A stretch of DNA of 64,000 nt from a virus: positions 1 to 64,000 of IMG/VR virus record IMGVR_UViG_3300023181_000003. One strand, 5' to 3'. This document shows positions 5,534 through 56,953 of this stretch, one piece after another. The notes under the pieces were generated by a model. The model ran no database searches. It was not told where the DNA came from and saw only the letters and a list, made by a program, of their open reading frames with translations. Each line of letters begins with the position of its first letter. The first letter of the stretch is position 1. Both the position numbers and the translations under genes were made by a program.

Positions 5534-5611
5534 AGCGGTGTAGTTCAGTCCGGTAGAACAGGGGTCTCATACGCCTCATGTCATGGGTTCAAATCCCATC
5601 ATTCGCAACCA
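5534..5611 (+). tRNA. tRNA-Met-like (anticodon CAT) with non-closing acceptor stem; possibly pseudogene or part of a larger composite
   Basis: Canonical D arm (GTTC/AGTCCGGTA/GAAC), anticodon arm (GGGGT/CTCATAC/GCCTC) and T arm (ATGGG/TTCAAAT/CCCAT), ending ..CATTCGC-A-ACCA. The adjacent 5' strand AGCGGTG does not pair with CATTCGC. Confidence 0.45.
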
Positions 5612-5728: not shown

Positions 5729-5812
5729 ACCGACTTCGCATAGAGGCCGATTGCACCTGTTTTGTAAGCAGGAATATAAACACCGTAAGTTCAAATCTTA
5801 CAGTCGGCACCA
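5729..5812 (+). tRNA. tRNA-like, anticodon TGT (Thr-type), encoded CCA, unusual 12-nt variable loop
   Basis: Hand fold: acceptor ACCGACT/AGTCGGC (A1-C72 mismatch); D arm GCAT/AGAGGCCGA/TTGC; anticodon arm CCTGT/TTTGTAA/GCAGG; T arm GTAAG/TTCAAAT/CTTAC; A-CCA at 5809-5812. Confidence 0.5.
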
Positions 5813-6745: not shown

Positions 6746-6831
6746 TAAATAACGTAGATGAACGGACGGCCATCCTTCACATTGCTCGCTCAGTGTGATA
6801 GTCTACACCAATTAAATATAGCGAGGTATGA

Positions 6832-7689
6832 ATGCGTAAGTATAAACTAAAAGATTTAGTGGGAACTAAATTAGGTTTTCTAGAAATAATTGCTAGAGAG
6901 CAAGAAGCAGAAAATGATACAGCTTACACAGCAAAATGGAGAGTCCGTTGTGCATGTGGTGAAGAAGTTATTTATGATCATAGAATTCTAACATCTAAGA
7001 AAAAGTCAAATTGTGGATGTGGTATGCGTAGTGAAAAATACCTCCCTGGTAAACAATTTTCTAAACTAACTATAGTTTCAAATGGACCACCCCATCCGAC
7101 AACACAATCTCCGAGGGTTTTCTGTAGATGTGAATGCGGAAATCCTGAACTAACCTTAGTGCAGAAGAATAACTTAATCTCTGGTAACACCACATCTTGT
7201 GGTTGTGTAGGTATTGCAAGTCGAATAACTCATGGTATGTCTAGTACACGAACTTACCAGATTTGGGAAGGTATGGTTCGTAGGTGTTCTGTTGGAAGAG
7301 AAGAAGAGTTTCCTTACCATGCAGGGAAAGGAATTCGAGTTTGTAAAGAGTGGAATCCGAAGTTAGGAGGGTCTTTTGAGAACTTCTATAAGGATATGGG
7401 AGAAGCTCCTGATAATCTTTCTATTGATCGTATTCACAATGATAATAACTATTTCAAAGAAAATTGCCGTTGGGCAACAAATAGTATCCAAGGCTATAAT
7501 AAAGGTTTAGACCCAAATAATAGTTCTGGTAAATCTGGTGTTAGTTTCTACAAACAGAATAATAAATGGTCTGCTGAAATACATGTAGACGGACAACATA
7601 TCCGACTAGGAATGTTTGAATATCTGGAGGATGCTATCAAAGCAAGAGAAAAAGCAGAGCTAGTCTACTATGGTTGGAATAAGCAATGA
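6832..7689 (+). CDS. HNH endonuclease with AP2-type DNA-binding domain (homing-endonuclease architecture)
   Basis: 285 aa. Two N-terminal Cys-rich repeats (..C.CGE...CGCG; ..CRCECG...SCGCV), HNH motif DRIHNDNNYFKENCRWATNSIQGYN, and C-terminal AP2-like GVSFYKQNNKWSAEIHVDGQHIRLGMFEYLEDAIKAREKAE. GAGG precedes the ATG. Confidence 0.8.
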   Translation: MRKYKLKDLVGTKLGFLEIIAREQEAENDTAYTAKWRVRCACGEEVIYDHRILTSKKKSNCGCGMRSEKYLPGKQFSKLTIVSNGPPHPTTQSPRVFCRCECGNPELTLVQKNNLISGNTTSCGCVGIASRITHGMSSTRTYQIWEGMVRRCSVGREEEFPYHAGKGIRVCKEWNPKLGGSFENFYKDMGEAPDNLSIDRIHNDNNYFKENCRWATNSIQGYNKGLDPNNSSGKSGVSFYKQNNKWSAEIHVDGQHIRLGMFEYLEDAIKAREKAELVYYGWNKQ

Positions 7690-7769
7690 GTGAACAGCAC
7701 TTCGGTCCTAGCAGCGAAAAACAGCAATGGTTTCTCTCTAGTGACGCTAATATTATTGTATATGGTGGT
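7686..7769 (+). CDS. terL: terminase large subunit, proposed exon 1 (28 codons)
   Basis: ATG overlaps the HNH stop (ATGA). MSEQHFGPSSEKQQWFLSSDANIIVYGG ends where TerL proteins run into the P-loop. Read through unspliced, the frame stops at 7812-7814. Confidence 0.55.
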
Positions 7770-7989
7770 AAACTTGTGCCTCCATTCAAAACTCTTTTAA
7801 ACGGGGAAACCTAAACAGATATTGCTGTAGGCAATCCCGTGCCAATGTTTAAAGACAGTGCGTAGAGGCCAGCCGCAAGGCGTAAGATTCAAGCGAATCT
7901 GAAACAGAGAGAATGTTTAAATACATTAAGAGATGGTCCGACACTCAGGGAAACTTGAGAGAGGTTTAGCGAACTTCATAACAGATACG
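7770..7989 (+). ncRNA. candidate self-splicing (group I-like) intron in terL; boundaries +/-3 nt
   Basis: 220 nt (220 mod 3 = 1, the frame offset between exon ORFs). Preceded by U and ends in G. GGUGGU/GCCUCC (7778-83) gives a P1-like pairing with terminal U-G. GNRA-capped hairpins at 7803-12, 7872-81 and 7944-59, plus hairpins at 7821-35, 7886-99 and 7912-27. Confidence 0.5.
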
Positions 7990-9393
7990 GCAATGGGTGG
8001 TGGCAAGTCCTATTGTGGCTTGTTACGCCATCTGAGATGGGTAGATGATCCTAATTATCGTGGATTCATTATCCGTAAAAACCAAACAACATTAGCTAAA
8101 TCTGGTGGTTTGTTTGATGAAGCTAAGACTCTTTACAGAGCATTTGAGCCTAGAGTAAAGATTAACAAGAAAGATATGAAGTTTGAGTTCCCTTCGGGGG
8201 CTGAGATTGCCATGTCCCATCTTGAAACAGACGATGACGCTGAGAAGTACCGTGGTTTACAAATCTCTGCGGCCATGATCGACGAGGCCACACAACTGAG
8301 CGAAGAAAATACTTTAGTTGTACTTTCACGTCTTAGGTCTAAAGCTAAGATGATTCCAAATCTTTTCCTAACGTGTAACCCGAATCCAGATTCTTATTTA
8401 CGTAAATGGATTGATTGGTGGATTATCCCTAAAGGTGCCACAAACGCAGGTCGTGCCAATCCAGACAGAGATGGAAAGATTCGTTGGTTCATTCGTCTAA
8501 ATAACGAGATGATATGGGCTGACACCAAGCAAGAATTACTAGAGCAGTATGCTTCTAGAGATTCTGATGGAAATATTCTTCCTGAAGATAGTGAATTCCA
8601 GTATATACGTCCTTTGTCATTGCAGTTTATATCTGCAACCATTTATGACAACCCTATACTTATTAAAACAAATCCAAACTACCTTGCCAACTTACTTGGA
8701 TTAAAACGAGTAAAGCAAGAGCGGGATTTATATGGTAATTGGGATATACGCGAAGACGCAGCAGGGTTCTGGAAAAGTGAATGGTTAGGAGAACCAGTAA
8801 AAGAATCTGATTATGATATTGTTTCATATTGCAGGGCATGGGATATCGCAGGTTCACTACCCTCAGAAGCAATGCCTAATCCAGACTGGACAGCCGGGGT
8901 ACTTATTGGAAAAAGCCGAGAAGGTATTTATCTAATTCTCGATGTAGTAAGATTCAGAGCAAGATTTGGCGAAGTAATGAAGAACATTATTTCTACTGCC
9001 TCTATCGATCCTGAAGGTACAAAAATTATATTACCACAAGAGCCAGGGCAAGCAGGTAAAGCAGCAGGGCAAATGATGATTCGTGAGTTAATTTCCGAAG
9101 GGTTTTATGCTCGTATGCGACCATCTAATAAATCTAAGCTTATACGTTTTCAACCCTTCGTGGCTGCATCAGAAGCAGGTATGGTGAGAATGGTACGAGG
9201 TCCTTGGAATGATGATTATACGTCTGAGTTAGTAGCCTTTGATGCAACACGTAACATTAAGGACGATCAAGTTGATGCCACATCAGACGCTTTTATCACA
9301 CTAGCTCAGAAAATTCAAATACCTAATATTCTATCTGGTATTCAATCAGCAAATTTATCAAGATCAAATCCACTCGTTGGATTAAATAACTAA
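7990..9393 (+). CDS. terL: terminase large subunit, main coding part (track ORF 7933..9393)
   Basis: Walker A AMGGGKS, Walker B-like AAMIDEAT, ~470 aa, immediately followed by the portal gene. The track ATG at 7933 has no usable SD and gives only 19 aa before the P-loop. Confidence 0.85.
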   Translation, partial: AMGGGKSYCGLLRHLRWVDDPNYRGFIIRKNQTTLAKSGGLFDEAKTLYRAFEPRVKINKKDMKFEFPSGAEIAMSHLETDDDAEKYRGLQISAAMIDEATQLSEENTLVVLSRLRSKAKMIPNLFLTCNPNPDSYLRKWIDWWIIPKGATNAGRANPDRDGKIRWFIRLNNEMIWADTKQELLEQYASRDSDGNILPEDSEFQYIRPLSLQFISATIYDNPILIKTNPNYLANLLGLKRVKQERDLYGNWDIREDAAGFWKSEWLGEPVKESDYDIVSYCRAWDIAGSLPSEAMPNPDWTAGVLIGKSREGIYLILDVVRFRARFGEVMKNIISTASIDPEGTKIILPQEPGQAGKAAGQMMIRELISEGFYARMRPSNKSKLIRFQPFVAASEAGMVRMVRGPWNDDYTSELVAFDATRNIKDDQVDATSDAFITLAQKIQIPNILSGIQSANLSRSNPLVGLNN

Positions 9394-9401
9394 GGAGAGA
9401 A

Positions 9402-10916
9402 ATGGAAGATTCACTTAAAAGTGATCAAACAGAAATTTCAAATCTCCAGCCTGGAACAAATCCAATACCATCTATCTCTCTTGGAGAAACAGGTTACAAC
9501 GGTCTAATTGTTCTTGGTGGAGATGTGTTTGAAGAGTGTCAACACGAATTGAGGTATCCTCAAGCAGTTGAAACATTCAAGAAAATGTCTAAAGATGGGG
9601 CTATTGCTCCTGCCTTAGAATTAGTTGAAATGTTAATATCTCGTGCTGATTGGTCTGTAAAAGTTCCAAAAGGATATGAAGAAGAATTAAAAGATAAAGC
9701 TATATTCATTGAACAGTGTGTATCTGATATGGATCACACATTCCAAGACTTTATCAAACAAGCTTCAAGCTTTAATAAATATGGATTCTCAGTTTGTGAG
9801 AAAGTCTTTCGTTATCGTCGTAAAGCCGATGGTTCAAGATTCGATGATGGATTGATTGGACTAAAGAAATTACCTCTACGCTCTCAAGATAGTATTGATT
9901 CTTGGAAATGGAGTAGTAAAGGCCGTGAGATTGCAGGGTTCTGGCAGAAAGTTAACATCATTAATAGTGAGACTTTCAATGGATGGGATTTTGTTCAATC
10001 AACAGGTACAGAGGATAATGGTTCAACATTAAAGTTTATCCCACGTAAAAAATATTTACACTTTAGAAACTCTCCAGAAAAAGATTCTCCTTATGGTAAA
10101 TCTCCTTTAGTTGGAGCATGGCAAGCGTGGCGCTACAAGCAGGCTTTTCAAGAAGCTGAAGCTATTGGTGTCTCACAAGATGCTAATGGATTTAAAGTCT
10201 TATACCTTCCTCCACAATACCTTGCACCTGACGCTTCAGAAGAAAATAAGGCAGTTTACGCAGAGTATAAAAAGATTATGGCAAACATTCAAGTTGCCAA
10301 ACAATCTGGATTAATTCTACCTTTGATCGTTGATGATCAAGGTAATAAGATGTTTGAGTTTGATATCAAGTCTATCACAGGCCAAAAGTCTTATGATACA
10401 GATGCAATTATTAAACGTTATACATCAGAGATTCTTTCCTCATTATTCGCTGATTTCTTAGCATTAGGTAGTAATGGGGGTGGCTCATTCAGCTTAGCTG
10501 AGTCTAAACTTTCTGTTATTGAAATGGCTATTGAATCAAGATTAAATGAAATCAAAGCTCAATTAAACCACGATCTGATTCCACAACTATTCGCTTTAAA
10601 TGGATGGTCTACCGAAGTTCTTCCTTATTTCACATATGGAAAAATTGGTAGCGTAAGTCTAGATGAAGTTGGTAAGTTTGTACAACGTGTTGCAGCAGTG
10701 GGGATGTTACCAAAAGATGCTCATGTAATTAACTGGTTACTAGCTCAAGCAGATATTCCATATCGTGTTGATGAAAATATGTCTGTAGAAGAATTAAGTA
10801 AAATTCTTACTCCCTTAGAAACTGGCGCTGCTGAGGGTATGGCCTCTGGTCTTCCCTCAGGCACTGGAAATTCTACAGGCAATAACTCTGCAACCAACAG
10901 CGACAACGCAGCATGA
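9402..10916 (+). CDS. portal protein
   Basis: 504 aa, directly downstream of terL and upstream of the prohead protease; call rests on position and size. Confidence 0.75.
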   Translation: MEDSLKSDQTEISNLQPGTNPIPSISLGETGYNGLIVLGGDVFEECQHELRYPQAVETFKKMSKDGAIAPALELVEMLISRADWSVKVPKGYEEELKDKAIFIEQCVSDMDHTFQDFIKQASSFNKYGFSVCEKVFRYRRKADGSRFDDGLIGLKKLPLRSQDSIDSWKWSSKGREIAGFWQKVNIINSETFNGWDFVQSTGTEDNGSTLKFIPRKKYLHFRNSPEKDSPYGKSPLVGAWQAWRYKQAFQEAEAIGVSQDANGFKVLYLPPQYLAPDASEENKAVYAEYKKIMANIQVAKQSGLILPLIVDDQGNKMFEFDIKSITGQKSYDTDAIIKRYTSEILSSLFADFLALGSNGGGSFSLAESKLSVIEMAIESRLNEIKAQLNHDLIPQLFALNGWSTEVLPYFTYGKIGSVSLDEVGKFVQRVAAVGMLPKDAHVINWLLAQADIPYRVDENMSVEELSKILTPLETGAAEGMASGLPSGTGNSTGNNSATNSDNAA

Positions 10917-10944: not shown

Positions 10945-12336
10945 ATGTCTCATGAGTTAGTTCGATTAAAGAATAAACTATATAACACTCCCCACCTAAT
11001 CAATACAACATCATTTGAAACAATTCTAGAGTATCTTAACACAAGAAGTCTAGGTGGTTTTGTTCCAAAGCCTTTGCTTATTGAAGATGATGATTTTGTT
11101 CCTCCATCACAAGACGATGAAGATAATCAAAATTATGATGCTGATCTAAAGACAGGATTTATCCATATTGAAGGCCCACTTACATATAAGCCTGTAACCA
11201 TTATGGGGTTTGATTGTGGTGGGGCAAATTACCAGACCATTAAATCAGACTTTATTGATATGGTTGATGCTGGTGTAAAAACTATTGTATTAGCAATAGA
11301 CAGTGGTGGAGGTGAGGCATTCCAATGCTTCCCTACAGCACAATATATGCGTGACCTTGCAGATGAAAATAGTGTAAAGATTATTACATATGTAGACGGT
11401 ATGGCCGCTTCTGCTGCTTACGCACTAGGCTCCATTGCTGATGAATTGATTATGGCCCCATCATCTGAGGTAGGATCAATTGGTGTTTTAGTTCGTCTAT
11501 TTAATGATTCTAAAGCATTAGAGATGAACGGATATGAAAGAACATTTGTTAAAGCTGGTGGAGAAAAGATTCCATATGCTGAAGATGGTTCTTTCAGAAA
11601 AGAATTCATAGCTGACATTCAAGAAAAAGTGGATGTTATGTATGGAGAGTTTGTTGATCATGTTGCGCAAATGCGTGGATTGTCAGCAGACGCAGTTAGG
11701 GCCACTGAAGCTAAAACCTTTCTCCCTGAGAAGGCAATGCAACTTGGACTAGCTGAAAGTGTGATGACTTTAGAGGAACTACACGATTACTTAGTCACTT
11801 CAGCCCAATCTCAAGGAGAACAGATGTTCAATAAACGAACACCTAAATTTAAACTAGATAAACAAGAGGAAAATCTTGACATGACCCAAATTGCAGAACT
11901 GCAATCTCAGCTACAAGCACTTACAGGACAACTAGAAGGCGTAAACGCTGAACTTGTTAATTCTGCTTCTGCTCTAGCTCTCGCCCAAACTACTCTAACT
12001 GAAAAAGAACTAGCTCTAACTGAAGCACTCTCACAAGTTGCCTCTCTAGAAGCTGCACAACTAGATGCTAAAGCATCAGCCCGTAAACAATCCTTGGCTG
12101 CTGTCCTAGCGGCTGATAAAGTGGAAGCTACTGCTACTGCTCTATCTGGCCTAGATGACACTGCTTTTGATACTGTCCTAGCAAGCTACAAAGCACAAGC
12201 TGAAGTTAACAAAGCTTCAGAACTAATGCAAGAACTTGGTGGCGAAGGTGCTGTTGTTGATACAACTAAAAAAGTTGAAAGTAAATCAACAACTTCTAAA
12301 GCACTTGAACAAAAACTTGGCAAAGTAAGCCAGTAA
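10945..12336 (+). CDS. prohead serine protease (S49/ClpP-like) fused to scaffold-like coiled coil
   Basis: 463 aa; IDSGGGE and GMAASAAYALGS motifs of S49-type peptidases; Ala/Leu/Gln-rich C-terminal third (QSQLQALTGQLEG...). Confidence 0.75.
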   Translation: MSHELVRLKNKLYNTPHLINTTSFETILEYLNTRSLGGFVPKPLLIEDDDFVPPSQDDEDNQNYDADLKTGFIHIEGPLTYKPVTIMGFDCGGANYQTIKSDFIDMVDAGVKTIVLAIDSGGGEAFQCFPTAQYMRDLADENSVKIITYVDGMAASAAYALGSIADELIMAPSSEVGSIGVLVRLFNDSKALEMNGYERTFVKAGGEKIPYAEDGSFRKEFIADIQEKVDVMYGEFVDHVAQMRGLSADAVRATEAKTFLPEKAMQLGLAESVMTLEELHDYLVTSAQSQGEQMFNKRTPKFKLDKQEENLDMTQIAELQSQLQALTGQLEGVNAELVNSASALALAQTTLTEKELALTEALSQVASLEAAQLDAKASARKQSLAAVLAADKVEATATALSGLDDTAFDTVLASYKAQAEVNKASELMQELGGEGAVVDTTKKVESKSTTSKALEQKLGKVSQ

Positions 12337-54131: not shown

Positions 54132-54336
54132 GATTGAAGGCTGGTGTATTATTGACAGTCAGACTGGTGAGAGAATCCTGAAAGTTTATGAGACTAGGGG
54201 TGGAGCCAAGACTAGTTTTAATAATAGTTGTTATGCGCGTTTGTGTCTTGGGCATGTTGAAAAATTTGATGAACAAATTCGTTATATCTTAAATCCTTTA
54301 GTATTGATTGAAGGGGAAGATGACAGCACAAAATAA
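54121..54336 (+). CDS. hypothetical protein
   Basis: ORF track, 71 aa. Confidence 0.55.
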   Translation: MSHRIEGWCIIDSQTGERILKVYETRGGAKTSFNNSCYARLCLGHVEKFDEQIRYILNPLVLIEGEDDSTK

Positions 54337-54886
54337 AATAGAAGAGATTCTAAAACAATATCCTCAGATATGGAAAACAGAATCATCTTTCATGTCTTTC
54401 CTTCGAGGGGGTGTAAGATCAGGGCTATGGAATAAACACCCTGTCAAGTTAGAATTCATTAAGAATAATAGAATAAGAATAGAAAACCCTAAATTAGAAA
54501 ATCGTGGTAGATTCCCAACAGTGTGGGGTGGTGTTTGTGCTCTCACGGGAGAACTTTGTGTTATAGGAGATATGGAAGTTGATCACAAAGTTGGAGGGCA
54601 CAGCCTTAGAAGCATTAAAGATTTGCAACAATTTGTAGAAGGTCTTGCGCTTATCACAGCAGAGGATTTACAATTGGTGTCTAAGGTGGCACATAAGATT
54701 AAAAGTATGTCAGAGAAAAATGGAACAGACTTCAACACTGCGATGATAGAAAAGAAAGCCATTCAAATCTGTAAGGATAATCTTGACAAGGCTTTTCTAG
54801 AGGAACATAATCTAGTTCCAGCCACAACAAAGGCTAAGCGTAGACAACAAATTGTAGAATTTTTAACTAAGGAGAATTTAAAATGA
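54320..54886 (+). CDS. HNH-like (His-Me finger) protein
   Basis: Track TTG start moved to the ATG at 54320. CALTGELCVIGDMEVDHKVGGH ... VSKVAHKIKS resembles an HNH core lacking the second Cys pair. Confidence 0.5.
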   Translation: MTAQNKIEEILKQYPQIWKTESSFMSFLRGGVRSGLWNKHPVKLEFIKNNRIRIENPKLENRGRFPTVWGGVCALTGELCVIGDMEVDHKVGGHSLRSIKDLQQFVEGLALITAEDLQLVSKVAHKIKSMSEKNGTDFNTAMIEKKAIQICKDNLDKAFLEEHNLVPATTKAKRRQQIVEFLTKENLK

Positions 54887-55300: not shown

Positions 55301-55467
55301 TCTACGATATCTACGTCTCAGGTAAATACTTCGGTAATGTCAATGAGAAATCATTGCAACTAGCTGCTGTAAAAGCCCGACAGCTTATTAACATGAGCAA
55401 TCCAAAAACTTCTGCTACAAAATTCTCTCTACTACAGAGAGTAGAGACTATTGAATTTGATCTATAA
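55297..55467 (+). CDS. hypothetical protein (56 aa)
   Basis: Hand-translated MIYDIYVSGKYFGNVNEKSLQLAAVKARQLINM...; ATGA overlap; preferred over antisense track ORF 55311..55514. Confidence 0.45.
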   Translation: MIYDIYVSGKYFGNVNEKSLQLAAVKARQLINMSNPKTSATKFSLLQRVETIEFDL

Positions 55468-55481
55468 TTGAGGAAACATCT

Positions 55482-56623: not shown

Positions 56624-56953
56624 ATGGACATGCAATTTGAAGATAAAGTTGTTCGCAAGTGGTTGTCTAAACGAGATGATGCACAACGAAGGGGTATTGA
56701 ATTTAACCTTTCTGTTGTTTCAATTAGAAACCTTCTTCTGTCTAAGAAGTGTTACTATCTTGGCACCCCACTGTCACCAGACAAGATCACGATTGATCGT
56801 GTAGATGGTCGTAAGGGTTATGTCAAGGGAAATGTTGTAGCTTGTAGTAATAAAGCAAATCAAGTTAAAGAGATTTTTGAGCGAGAACCACAACTTCTTG
56901 ATACAATCCGTGATAAGATGAATAAACACATGAAAGGAAATACAAATGTCTGA
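56624..56953 (+). CDS. HNH-family endonuclease-like protein
   Basis: 109 aa; ...CYYLGTPLSPDKITIDRVDGRKGYVKGNVVACSNKANQVK matches the small phage HNH pattern (C..tG......s.DRid...GY..gNv......N..K). Confidence 0.6.
   Translation: MDMQFEDKVVRKWLSKRDDAQRRGIEFNLSVVSIRNLLLSKKCYYLGTPLSPDKITIDRVDGRKGYVKGNVVACSNKANQVKEIFEREPQLLDTIRDKMNKHMKGNTNV

Follow-up and report, generated by a model that had tools for sequence, protein, structure and literature searches.

The stretch of DNA analyzed here, called the window in the following, comprises 64,000 nucleotides (nt) of an uncultured phage (positions 1 to 64,000 of IMG/VR record IMGVR_UViG_3300023181_000003) and carries on its plus strand a gene for the large terminase subunit, terL, that is distributed over two open reading frames (ORFs). 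The upstream ORF (7686..7814) encodes MSEQHFGPSSEKQQWFLSSDANIIVYGG and continues with 14 unrelated codons to a TAA stop at 7812-7814. The downstream ORF (7933..9393, 486 amino acids (aa)), which had been called as terL, starts with MVRHSGKLERGLANFITDTAMGGGKS and misses the first glycine of the Walker A motif. The sequence-only reading of this region had proposed that both ORFs belong to one gene interrupted by a group I-like intron; its coordinates, reading frame and 220-nt join were all confirmed on the sequence. Excision of 7770-7989 (220 nt) joins T7769 in frame to G7990 and leads to ..IIVYGGAMGGGKS.., with the predicted spliced junction ..TATGGTGGT/GCAATGGGT.. at the nucleotide level. Within Walker A, the intron thereby separates the codon of the second Gly from that of the Ala. 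Exon 1 of terL then covers 7686..7769 (28 codons, MSEQ..IIVYGG), the intron 7770..7989, and exon 2 (7990..9393) extends from AMGGGKS.. to the stop codon. The bases 7933..7989 at the 5' end of the called ORF would be a false extension, i.e. intron bases that are in frame with exon 2 by chance.

The comparison with intron-less homologues bore out the junction peptide that had been predicted. The spliced protein of 495 aa matches the Pfam families Terminase_6N (PF03237, E 3e-18) and Terminase_6C (PF17289, E 1.1e-18), both represented in exon 2, and the Walker A motif GAMGGGKS is complete in the spliced product only. Searching with this protein by tblastn gave one-piece matches to terL genes without the intron in cultured phages (among them PAK_P3-like phages and Otagovirus), which begin at residue 1 or 7 and show 43-45% identity. 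Exon 1 aligns to the N-termini of intron-less TerLs without a gap, and there is also no alignment gap over the junction, where the cultured phages read DANITVFGGAAGAGKSY and the window reads DANIIVYGG/AMGGGKSY. In the collection of metagenome proteins, full-length proteins closely related to the window TerL (74-88% identity) contain ..NIIVYGGAMGGGKSYCGLLRHLRW.., which is the same as the predicted junction, and intron-less close homologues encode ..NIIVYGGAMGGGKS.., again the predicted peptide. The exon 1 protein is conserved and holds residues that are invariant over TerLs 42-88% identical. Moreover, about 30 of the first 70 inspected clusters of related proteins start at MGGGKS or MAMGGGKS or bear unrelated short extensions, i.e. 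they are truncated at the same place, and the extensions of these miscalled homologues (MVRHSGK.., MRKRRGF.., VEKFSEL..) are mutually unrelated. Judged from the protein alignments, the window TerL is related to the TerLs of phages infecting Gram-negative bacteria. At the nucleotide level, a megablast search of 6800-9400 against cultured phages gave no match, and a sensitive blastn search with the intron against the same phages returned three short matches only, in Clostridium and Staphylococcus phages. Hence, phage and intron lie outside that cultured-phage collection.

The nature of the inserted sequence was indicated by a search of 7500-8200 (701 nt) against all Rfam families, in which the sole significant match was RF00028, the group I intron family, at 7723-7960 (45.8 bits, E 1.9e-10). 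Rfam placed P1 and P2 inside exon 1 and treated the true P1 as an insertion; this part was replaced by the P1 that is supported by covariation, and the P3-P9 assignment of Rfam proved correct. Related loci from IMG/VR and metagenomes bear an insertion at the identical place. A scan of IMG/VR with the core motif yielded 104 stretches, 60 of which adjoin a TerL-like gene, and 31 distinct introns were collected at the identical site, after ..GGT GGT and before GCN, all following a U and ending in G. Same-site introns at three of these loci (L008, L010 and L017) reach 71.5, 67.8 and 59 bits with RF00028 and are thus over the curated cut-off of 50 bits. The empty site is found in the nearest relative, L180, whose TerL is 88% identical and which reads TATGGTGGA/GCAATGGGT at this position. 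In the blastn alignment, window 7719-7768 corresponds to L180 841-890 (90% nucleotide identity) and the window from 7990 onward to L180 from 892 onward (76%), and the difference between both at terL is precisely the 220 nt. The L180-type intron-less site is TATGGTGGAGCAATGGGT; this closest intron-less allele has GGA as the last codon before the insertion point (L180 891 vs window 7769), and GGT is present in all 31 intron-bearing alleles.

The splice sites could be placed by pairings between the exons and the intron. As expected from the sequence-only reading, the base before the 5' junction is a U (7769 = T) and the last intron base is a G (7989), the omega G, which is G in 31/31 introns. The pairing of the exon end GGUGGU with GCCUCC that had been noticed before is present and extends to eight positions, in which the exon bases 7762-7769 (AUGGUGGU) pair with the internal guide 7778-7785 (GCCUCCAU) in a predicted P1 that contains a single U.U mismatch (7766/7781) and carries the U7769.G7778 wobble at the 5' splice site. 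All 25 aligned and all 31 collected sequences have this wobble. The Tyr/Phe codon located two codons upstream of the junction covaries with the guide (TAT-CCAU, TAC-CCGU, TTT-CCAA). A putative P10 is formed by 7774-7777 (UUGU) and the exon 2 bases GCAA at 7990-7993, and it shows covariation at the third codon position: the first codon of exon 2 changes together with the P10 guide (GCA with UGC(U) or UGU, GCU with AGC, GCG with CGC). At least four consecutive base pairs of P10 are possible in 20 of the 31 sequences, and in the intron of L040 a Ser codon (UCAGCA) is accompanied by a matching UGCUGG, giving a P10 of 6 base pairs. Furthermore, all 31 intron-bearing alleles use GGT for each of the two Gly residues that precede the junction, compared with 17/33 and 9/33 of the intron-less alleles. 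This fixation of GGT indicates an RNA-level constraint on synonymous sites of exon 1 or, as a second option compatible with the sequences, a very short co-conversion. Together, the exon-guide covariation and the GGT pattern place the junction firmly at 7769/7990. The alternative 5' site after T7766, which had been regarded as equally in frame, is thereby excluded: U7766 forms the U.U mismatch and not a U.G pair, and the intron-less homologues read YGGA.

The proposed secondary structure was evaluated in an alignment of 25 sequences. These sequences are related, and the search pattern by which they were gathered holds parts of P7 and J8/7 constant; hence, a control in which the pairing partners were slid by 1-3 columns is fairer than a shuffle. 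Standard pairs were found in 95.3% of the cells, compared with 36-45% in the slid and 77.8% in the shuffled control, and the covariation score amounted to 0.517, compared with 0.07-0.09 and 0.197, respectively. Changes on both sides occurred in 33 of 53 pairs, and in 500 shuffles the observed values were reached by none for four of the five measures. RNAalifold with 11 sequences recovered P1, P3, P4, P5, P7.2, P8 and the terminal hairpin. In this comparative sense the 25-sequence alignment supports P1, P10, P3-P9 and the P3/P7 pseudoknot, and no core helix is disrupted in the intron of the window.

In the resulting model P3 (7792-7797 / 7906-7911) has changes on both sides in five of six pairs and is paired in 100% of the cells. 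The P4-P6 domain (7801..7861) consists of P4 (7801-7806 / 7835-7840), P5 (7810-7812 / 7829-7831) and P6 (7841-7842 / 7860-7861), each with compensatory changes, and includes P5a (7815-7818 / 7825-7828) and P6a (7846-7849 / 7854-7857). P7 (7867-7871 GGCCA / 7934-7938 UGGUC), which makes the pseudoknot with P3, is likewise paired in 100% of the cells and switches between C-G and U-A (11 vs 14 sequences). By inference from the sequence, G7865, the bulged A7866 and the pair G7867-C7938 are compatible with a G-binding pocket. P7.1 (hairpin 7872-7881 with a GCAA loop) lies between P7 and the GAAAC-P3' segment, collinear with the T4 td intron, and is followed by P7.2 (hairpin 7885-7900), in which six of six pairs are compensatory. 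P8 (hairpin 7912-7927) has compensatory changes in four of four counted pairs. P9 (hairpin 7944-7959 with a GAAA loop) and a single further, P9.1-like hairpin (7961-7977) show them in five of six pairs each and are both present in the minimum free energy fold. Of the six hairpins listed in the sequence-only reading, four correspond to real elements (7872-7881 to P7.1, 7886-7899 to P7.2, 7912-7927 to P8 and 7944-7959 to P9), while the bases at 7803-7812 and 7821-7835 are strands of P4, P5 and P5a and not hairpins. The 10-nt direct repeat AATGTTTAAA that had also been pointed out does exist, at 7844-7853 in P6a and 7912-7921 in P8, but it was regarded as incidental, because it is not conserved and the P8 of related introns differs.

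The class of the ribozyme, which had been left unassigned, is td-like IA according to its sequence elements. The sequence of the T4 td intron used for comparison matched T4 to 100%. The core of the window intron is collinear with td, including P7.1/P7.2 and GAAAC-P3'. Both share the same order of elements, starting with P1 and its guide about 8 nt into the intron, P3, UAA, P4 with ACGGGG.., CAAUCCCGUGC and P6, continuing with P7 of the GACUA type, P7.1, P7.2 with an AAGY loop, GAAAC, P3' and P8, and ending with J8/7 (AAGAKAURGUC), P9 and a terminal hairpin with a UARCGA loop. Both also interrupt an essential phage gene within a highly conserved codon block. Domain 7 of IA2 introns is marked by two hairpins (PMC4227781), which are found here at 7872-7881 and 7885-7900 between P7 and P3'. 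Of domain 9, which comprises P9.0, P9.1 and P9.2 in IA2, only P9 and one further hairpin (7961-7977) are seen. By its sequence the intron is IA2-like (T4 td-like) and, with 220 nt, a minimal version of the type. In contrast to td, which has 1016 nt, resides in the thymidylate synthase gene, carries I-TevI and contains P9.1 and P9.2, the window intron is located in terL, lacks P2 and an ORF in P6, has one hairpin after P9, and is without a nucleotide-level match in cultured phages. On its plus strand no ORF of at least 25 aa lies wholly within the 220 nt, i.e. there is no intron-encoded homing endonuclease. By analogy with td, the intron would be catalytically active.

According to this model, the exon end AUGGUGGU would pair in the pre-mRNA with the guide GCCUCCAU to form P1, placing U7769.G7778 at the 5' splice site. 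Around this helix the core P3-P9 would fold, including the pseudoknot of P3 with P7 and the hairpins P7.1 and P7.2. An exogenous guanosine would then cleave after U7769, exon 2 would dock with GCAA on UUGU as P10, and the exons would be ligated after G7989. The product would be an mRNA for the 495-aa TerL with an intact GAMGGGKS P-loop. The unspliced RNA would yield just a 42-aa peptide, or a TerL that is truncated at the N-terminus and misses the first glycine of Walker A.

We consider it very likely, with a probability of roughly 0.93, that 7770-7989 represents a compact group I intron of the T4 td-like (IA) type that has no ORF and interrupts terL. The anatomy of the element, its homology, the covariation, the empty site of the relative and the horizontal spread described below are direct observations, and the proposal of a group I-like intron between T7769 and G7990 that restores GxxxxGKS is carried by the RF00028 match, the same-site relatives over the cut-off, the junction peptide, the empty site and the covariation. 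Several points weigh against this assignment. The RF00028 score of the window intron (45.8 bits) is below the curated gathering cut-off of 50, and scans of the whole window with Rfam, run with either the gathering threshold or an E-value limit of 0.01, gave two tRNAs only. The missing match in these scans is due to the speed filters, in which it was lost, and this loss explains the mis-annotation of terL. Moreover, P2 is absent and the gap between P1 and P3 measures only 6 nt, the U.U mismatch in P1 (U7766/U7781) is conserved, the folding z-score of the single sequence is only -1.74 and thus uninformative, the aligned sequences are related and partly fixed by the pattern as mentioned, and splicing is deduced from the sequence.

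The low score, the start at ATG 7933 that was picked by the gene callers (P0001) and the deduction of splicing from sequence could also be reconciled with a decayed, non-splicing remnant of an intron, in which case terL would be a pseudogene or would be translated as an N-terminally truncated protein from ATG 7933. This appears very improbable, since the core helices are all intact in the window sequence, the protein sequence of exon 1 is conserved, with residues invariant over TerLs 42-88% identical, a product started at ATG 7933 misses the first glycine of Walker A, the additional N-terminal stretches of the miscalled homologues show no conservation, and terL is essential with the remainder of the gene intact. 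Split genes and translational bypassing occur in phages, as in T4 gene 60, and both ORFs are open here, but a TerL assembled from the 42-aa exon 1 peptide and the product of the 486-aa ORF, or ribosomal bypass of the 220 nt, is hardly conceivable, because such a split would cut the P-loop itself, the exon 1 frame runs on into non-conserved codons, 220 nt far exceed the known bypass of 50 nt, and the intervening RNA bears every group I hallmark, including covariation that protein-level models leave unexplained. An intein was ruled out as the identity of the insertion, because the 220 nt shift the frame and lead to the stop at 7812-7814.

The td-like intron in the terL gene of the window phage belongs to a family that has moved recently. 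The terL genes hosting the 31 introns are 34-79% identical to the window terL. Introns that are 97-98% identical were found in TerLs of only 44-48% identity, namely that of L008 with those of L131, L133 and L137, and those of L012, L013 and L021 with that of L065. Over all pairs, intron identity and TerL identity correlate weakly (Spearman 0.26). Hence, the near-identical introns in divergent TerLs point to a recent movement of the intron between divergent phages, always to the same site. No co-conversion tract is visible beside the transferred introns, where the exons at the junctions are 38-70% identical compared with 97-98% for the introns, which speaks against a mobilization of the intron by the HNH endonuclease gene described below. 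Since near-identical introns occur in TerLs 44-48% identical and the exons beside them show no co-conversion, a guide-directed, reverse-splicing-like insertion into AUGGUGGU/GCN might, as a speculative and less likely possibility, replace or supplement such a mobilization.

Other interruptions of terL were met in the collected loci. A second one is located at residue 454/455 in L004 (4557-4821, RF00028 61 bits) and L019 (4608-5373, 41 bits), and the window terL is continuous at this residue. Introns with the core motif also split other TerLs at about residue 117-127 near Walker B (..DEA..) in L037, L046, L053, L054, L070, L083, L102 and L112; as read from these sequences, insertions into the ATPase recur at a second place, the Walker B region. 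About 43 of 103 core-motif loci (L036-L138) have no TerL-like flank in the searched stretch, and the intron family is probably present in other genes as well. Within the window the core motif GTAGAGACTA..GAAAC appears again at 55441-55477 on the plus strand, with a chance expectation of none. This place was dismissed as a second intron, since it has no Rfam match, does not split a gene and is situated among small ORFs, so that it is probably not an intron.

Directly upstream of terL lies a free-standing gene for an HNH endonuclease of 285 aa (6832..7689, plus strand; PHROG phrog_374 'HNH endonuclease', E 8.5e-70, with a weak AP2 match). Its TGA stop overlaps the terL ATG at 7686 (ATGA), and the intron follows 84 nt downstream. 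The gene is absent from L180, where a conserved upstream gene of 153 aa abuts terL. In relatives the same slot holds HNH or homing endonuclease genes from at least six PHROG families (374, 2081, 953, 59, 99, 681/559, 655). In L133, with a TerL about 45-47% identical to that of the window, a 64%-identical homologue of the window HNH protein abuts terL. An adjacent endonuclease gene was recorded at 16/31 intron-bearing vs 6/27 intron-less loci (Fisher p = 0.03), with the restriction that the loci are non-independent and differently sampled.

With somewhat better than even odds, the HNH protein is unrelated to the intron. It would then either be a free-standing homing endonuclease that homes independently or, as known from cos phages, assist the terminase as an accessory factor. 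HNH genes are common beside terminase genes and can assist the terminase (PMC3592412). In line with a lack of relation, an adjacent HNH gene without the intron exists in L007 and L011, the intron without an HNH gene in L014, L015, L065 and L131, and near-identical introns are accompanied by different HNH families. However, the occupation of the slot by at least six unrelated HNH families, together with the empty slot in close relatives, is typical of selfish insertions and not of a conserved accessory gene. Moreover, the enrichment of HNH genes beside intron-bearing alleles, the terL/HNH layout, which matches T4 mobE-nrdB, and the movement of an ORF-less intron between lineages, which needs some mobilizing activity, speak for a connection. 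Hence, mobilization of the ORF-less intron in trans by the HNH gene at 6832-7689, by cutting intron-less terL alleles, can be tentatively proposed in analogy to known systems, although the odds are somewhat against it. In T4, the free-standing HNH gene mobE just upstream of nrdB nicks the 5' region of nrdB and mobilizes the nrdB intron in trans (PMC2790892), and a 'collaborative homing' scheme has been described for F-CphI and psbA (PMC3984707). Common to these systems and the window is a free-standing endonuclease gene, of the HNH family in the case of mobE, beside a gene with an intron that is not mobile on its own. The window locus differs from both in that the slot is filled by many unrelated HNH families in relatives, no co-conversion tracts are visible at terL, and the cleavage of terL by the window HNH protein is only putative. 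A still broader view is speculative and rather unlikely to hold in full: intron and HNH gene might form a two-part mobile unit, with the endonuclease targeting in trans the intron-less Walker A region, and the slot upstream of terL might be an arena of repeated convergence for one family of introns and six or more unrelated families of HNH genes. Elsewhere in the window, HNH-like motifs were seen by eye in the plus-strand ORFs 56624-56953 (..IDRVDGRKGYVKGNVVACS..) and 54308-54886 (..DMEVDHKVGGH..), which hints, from the sequence motifs, at further free-standing endonuclease genes in this phage.

That group I introns can interrupt the terminase genes of phages is already established, and the td-like intron of the window is a further example. 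Terminases are typical targets of these introns (PMC3984707), and splicing has been demonstrated for the terL introns of Bastillevirinae such as SIOphi (PMC11878797). Like the window intron, these are IA-type introns in terL, self-splicing in the published case, and gene callers split or truncate the gene. The published Bastillevirinae-type introns have a mean length of about 800 nt and 32 of 45 contain an intron-encoded nuclease (PMC11878797), whereas the window intron is ORF-less, has 220 nt and stems from an uncultured phage. A literature search gave no paper relevant to the site that joins group I intron, terminase and Walker A, and the published positions of terL introns were not compared. 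The inteins in the P-loop of terminases hit the same few Walker A codons; in contrast to them the window insertion is out of frame, has stop codons and is proposed to be removed at the RNA level. Among the collected loci, L025 (1936-3792) encodes a distant TerL with an in-frame insertion directly after GGGK (..GGGKALRLTTPIPTPSGW..), and the proteins P0074 and P0080 are TerLs of 835 aa with a LAGLIDADG domain (LAGLIDADG_3). Judging from these sequences, the P-loop codons hit by the intron seem to be a target of inteins, too.

The principles known for phage group I introns are unchanged by these findings. In practical terms, terL of the window phage and of about 30 of the first 70 related clusters is mis-annotated as an N-terminally truncated gene with incomplete Walker A, and the cause of the truncation is not flagged by routine Rfam scanning. 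The proper joining of the exons matters for TerL phylogenies, marker-gene surveys and structure prediction. Furthermore, the introns form a widespread family of very small td-like elements that is locked to one site in the packaging ATPase over distantly related phages, with clear evidence for recent horizontal transfer. The link to free-standing HNH endonucleases is suggestive and makes the locus a tractable system for studies on homing in trans.

The terL gene is followed on the plus strand by an ORF of 504 aa (9402-10916), which probably is the portal gene, as its counterpart in L180 matches PF06074 (Portal_Mu). Next comes an ORF of 463 aa (10945-12336, plus strand). Upstream of the packaging module, two tRNA genes are located on the plus strand at 5535-5607 and 5729-5809 (Rfam RF00005, 52.3 and 48.4 bits).

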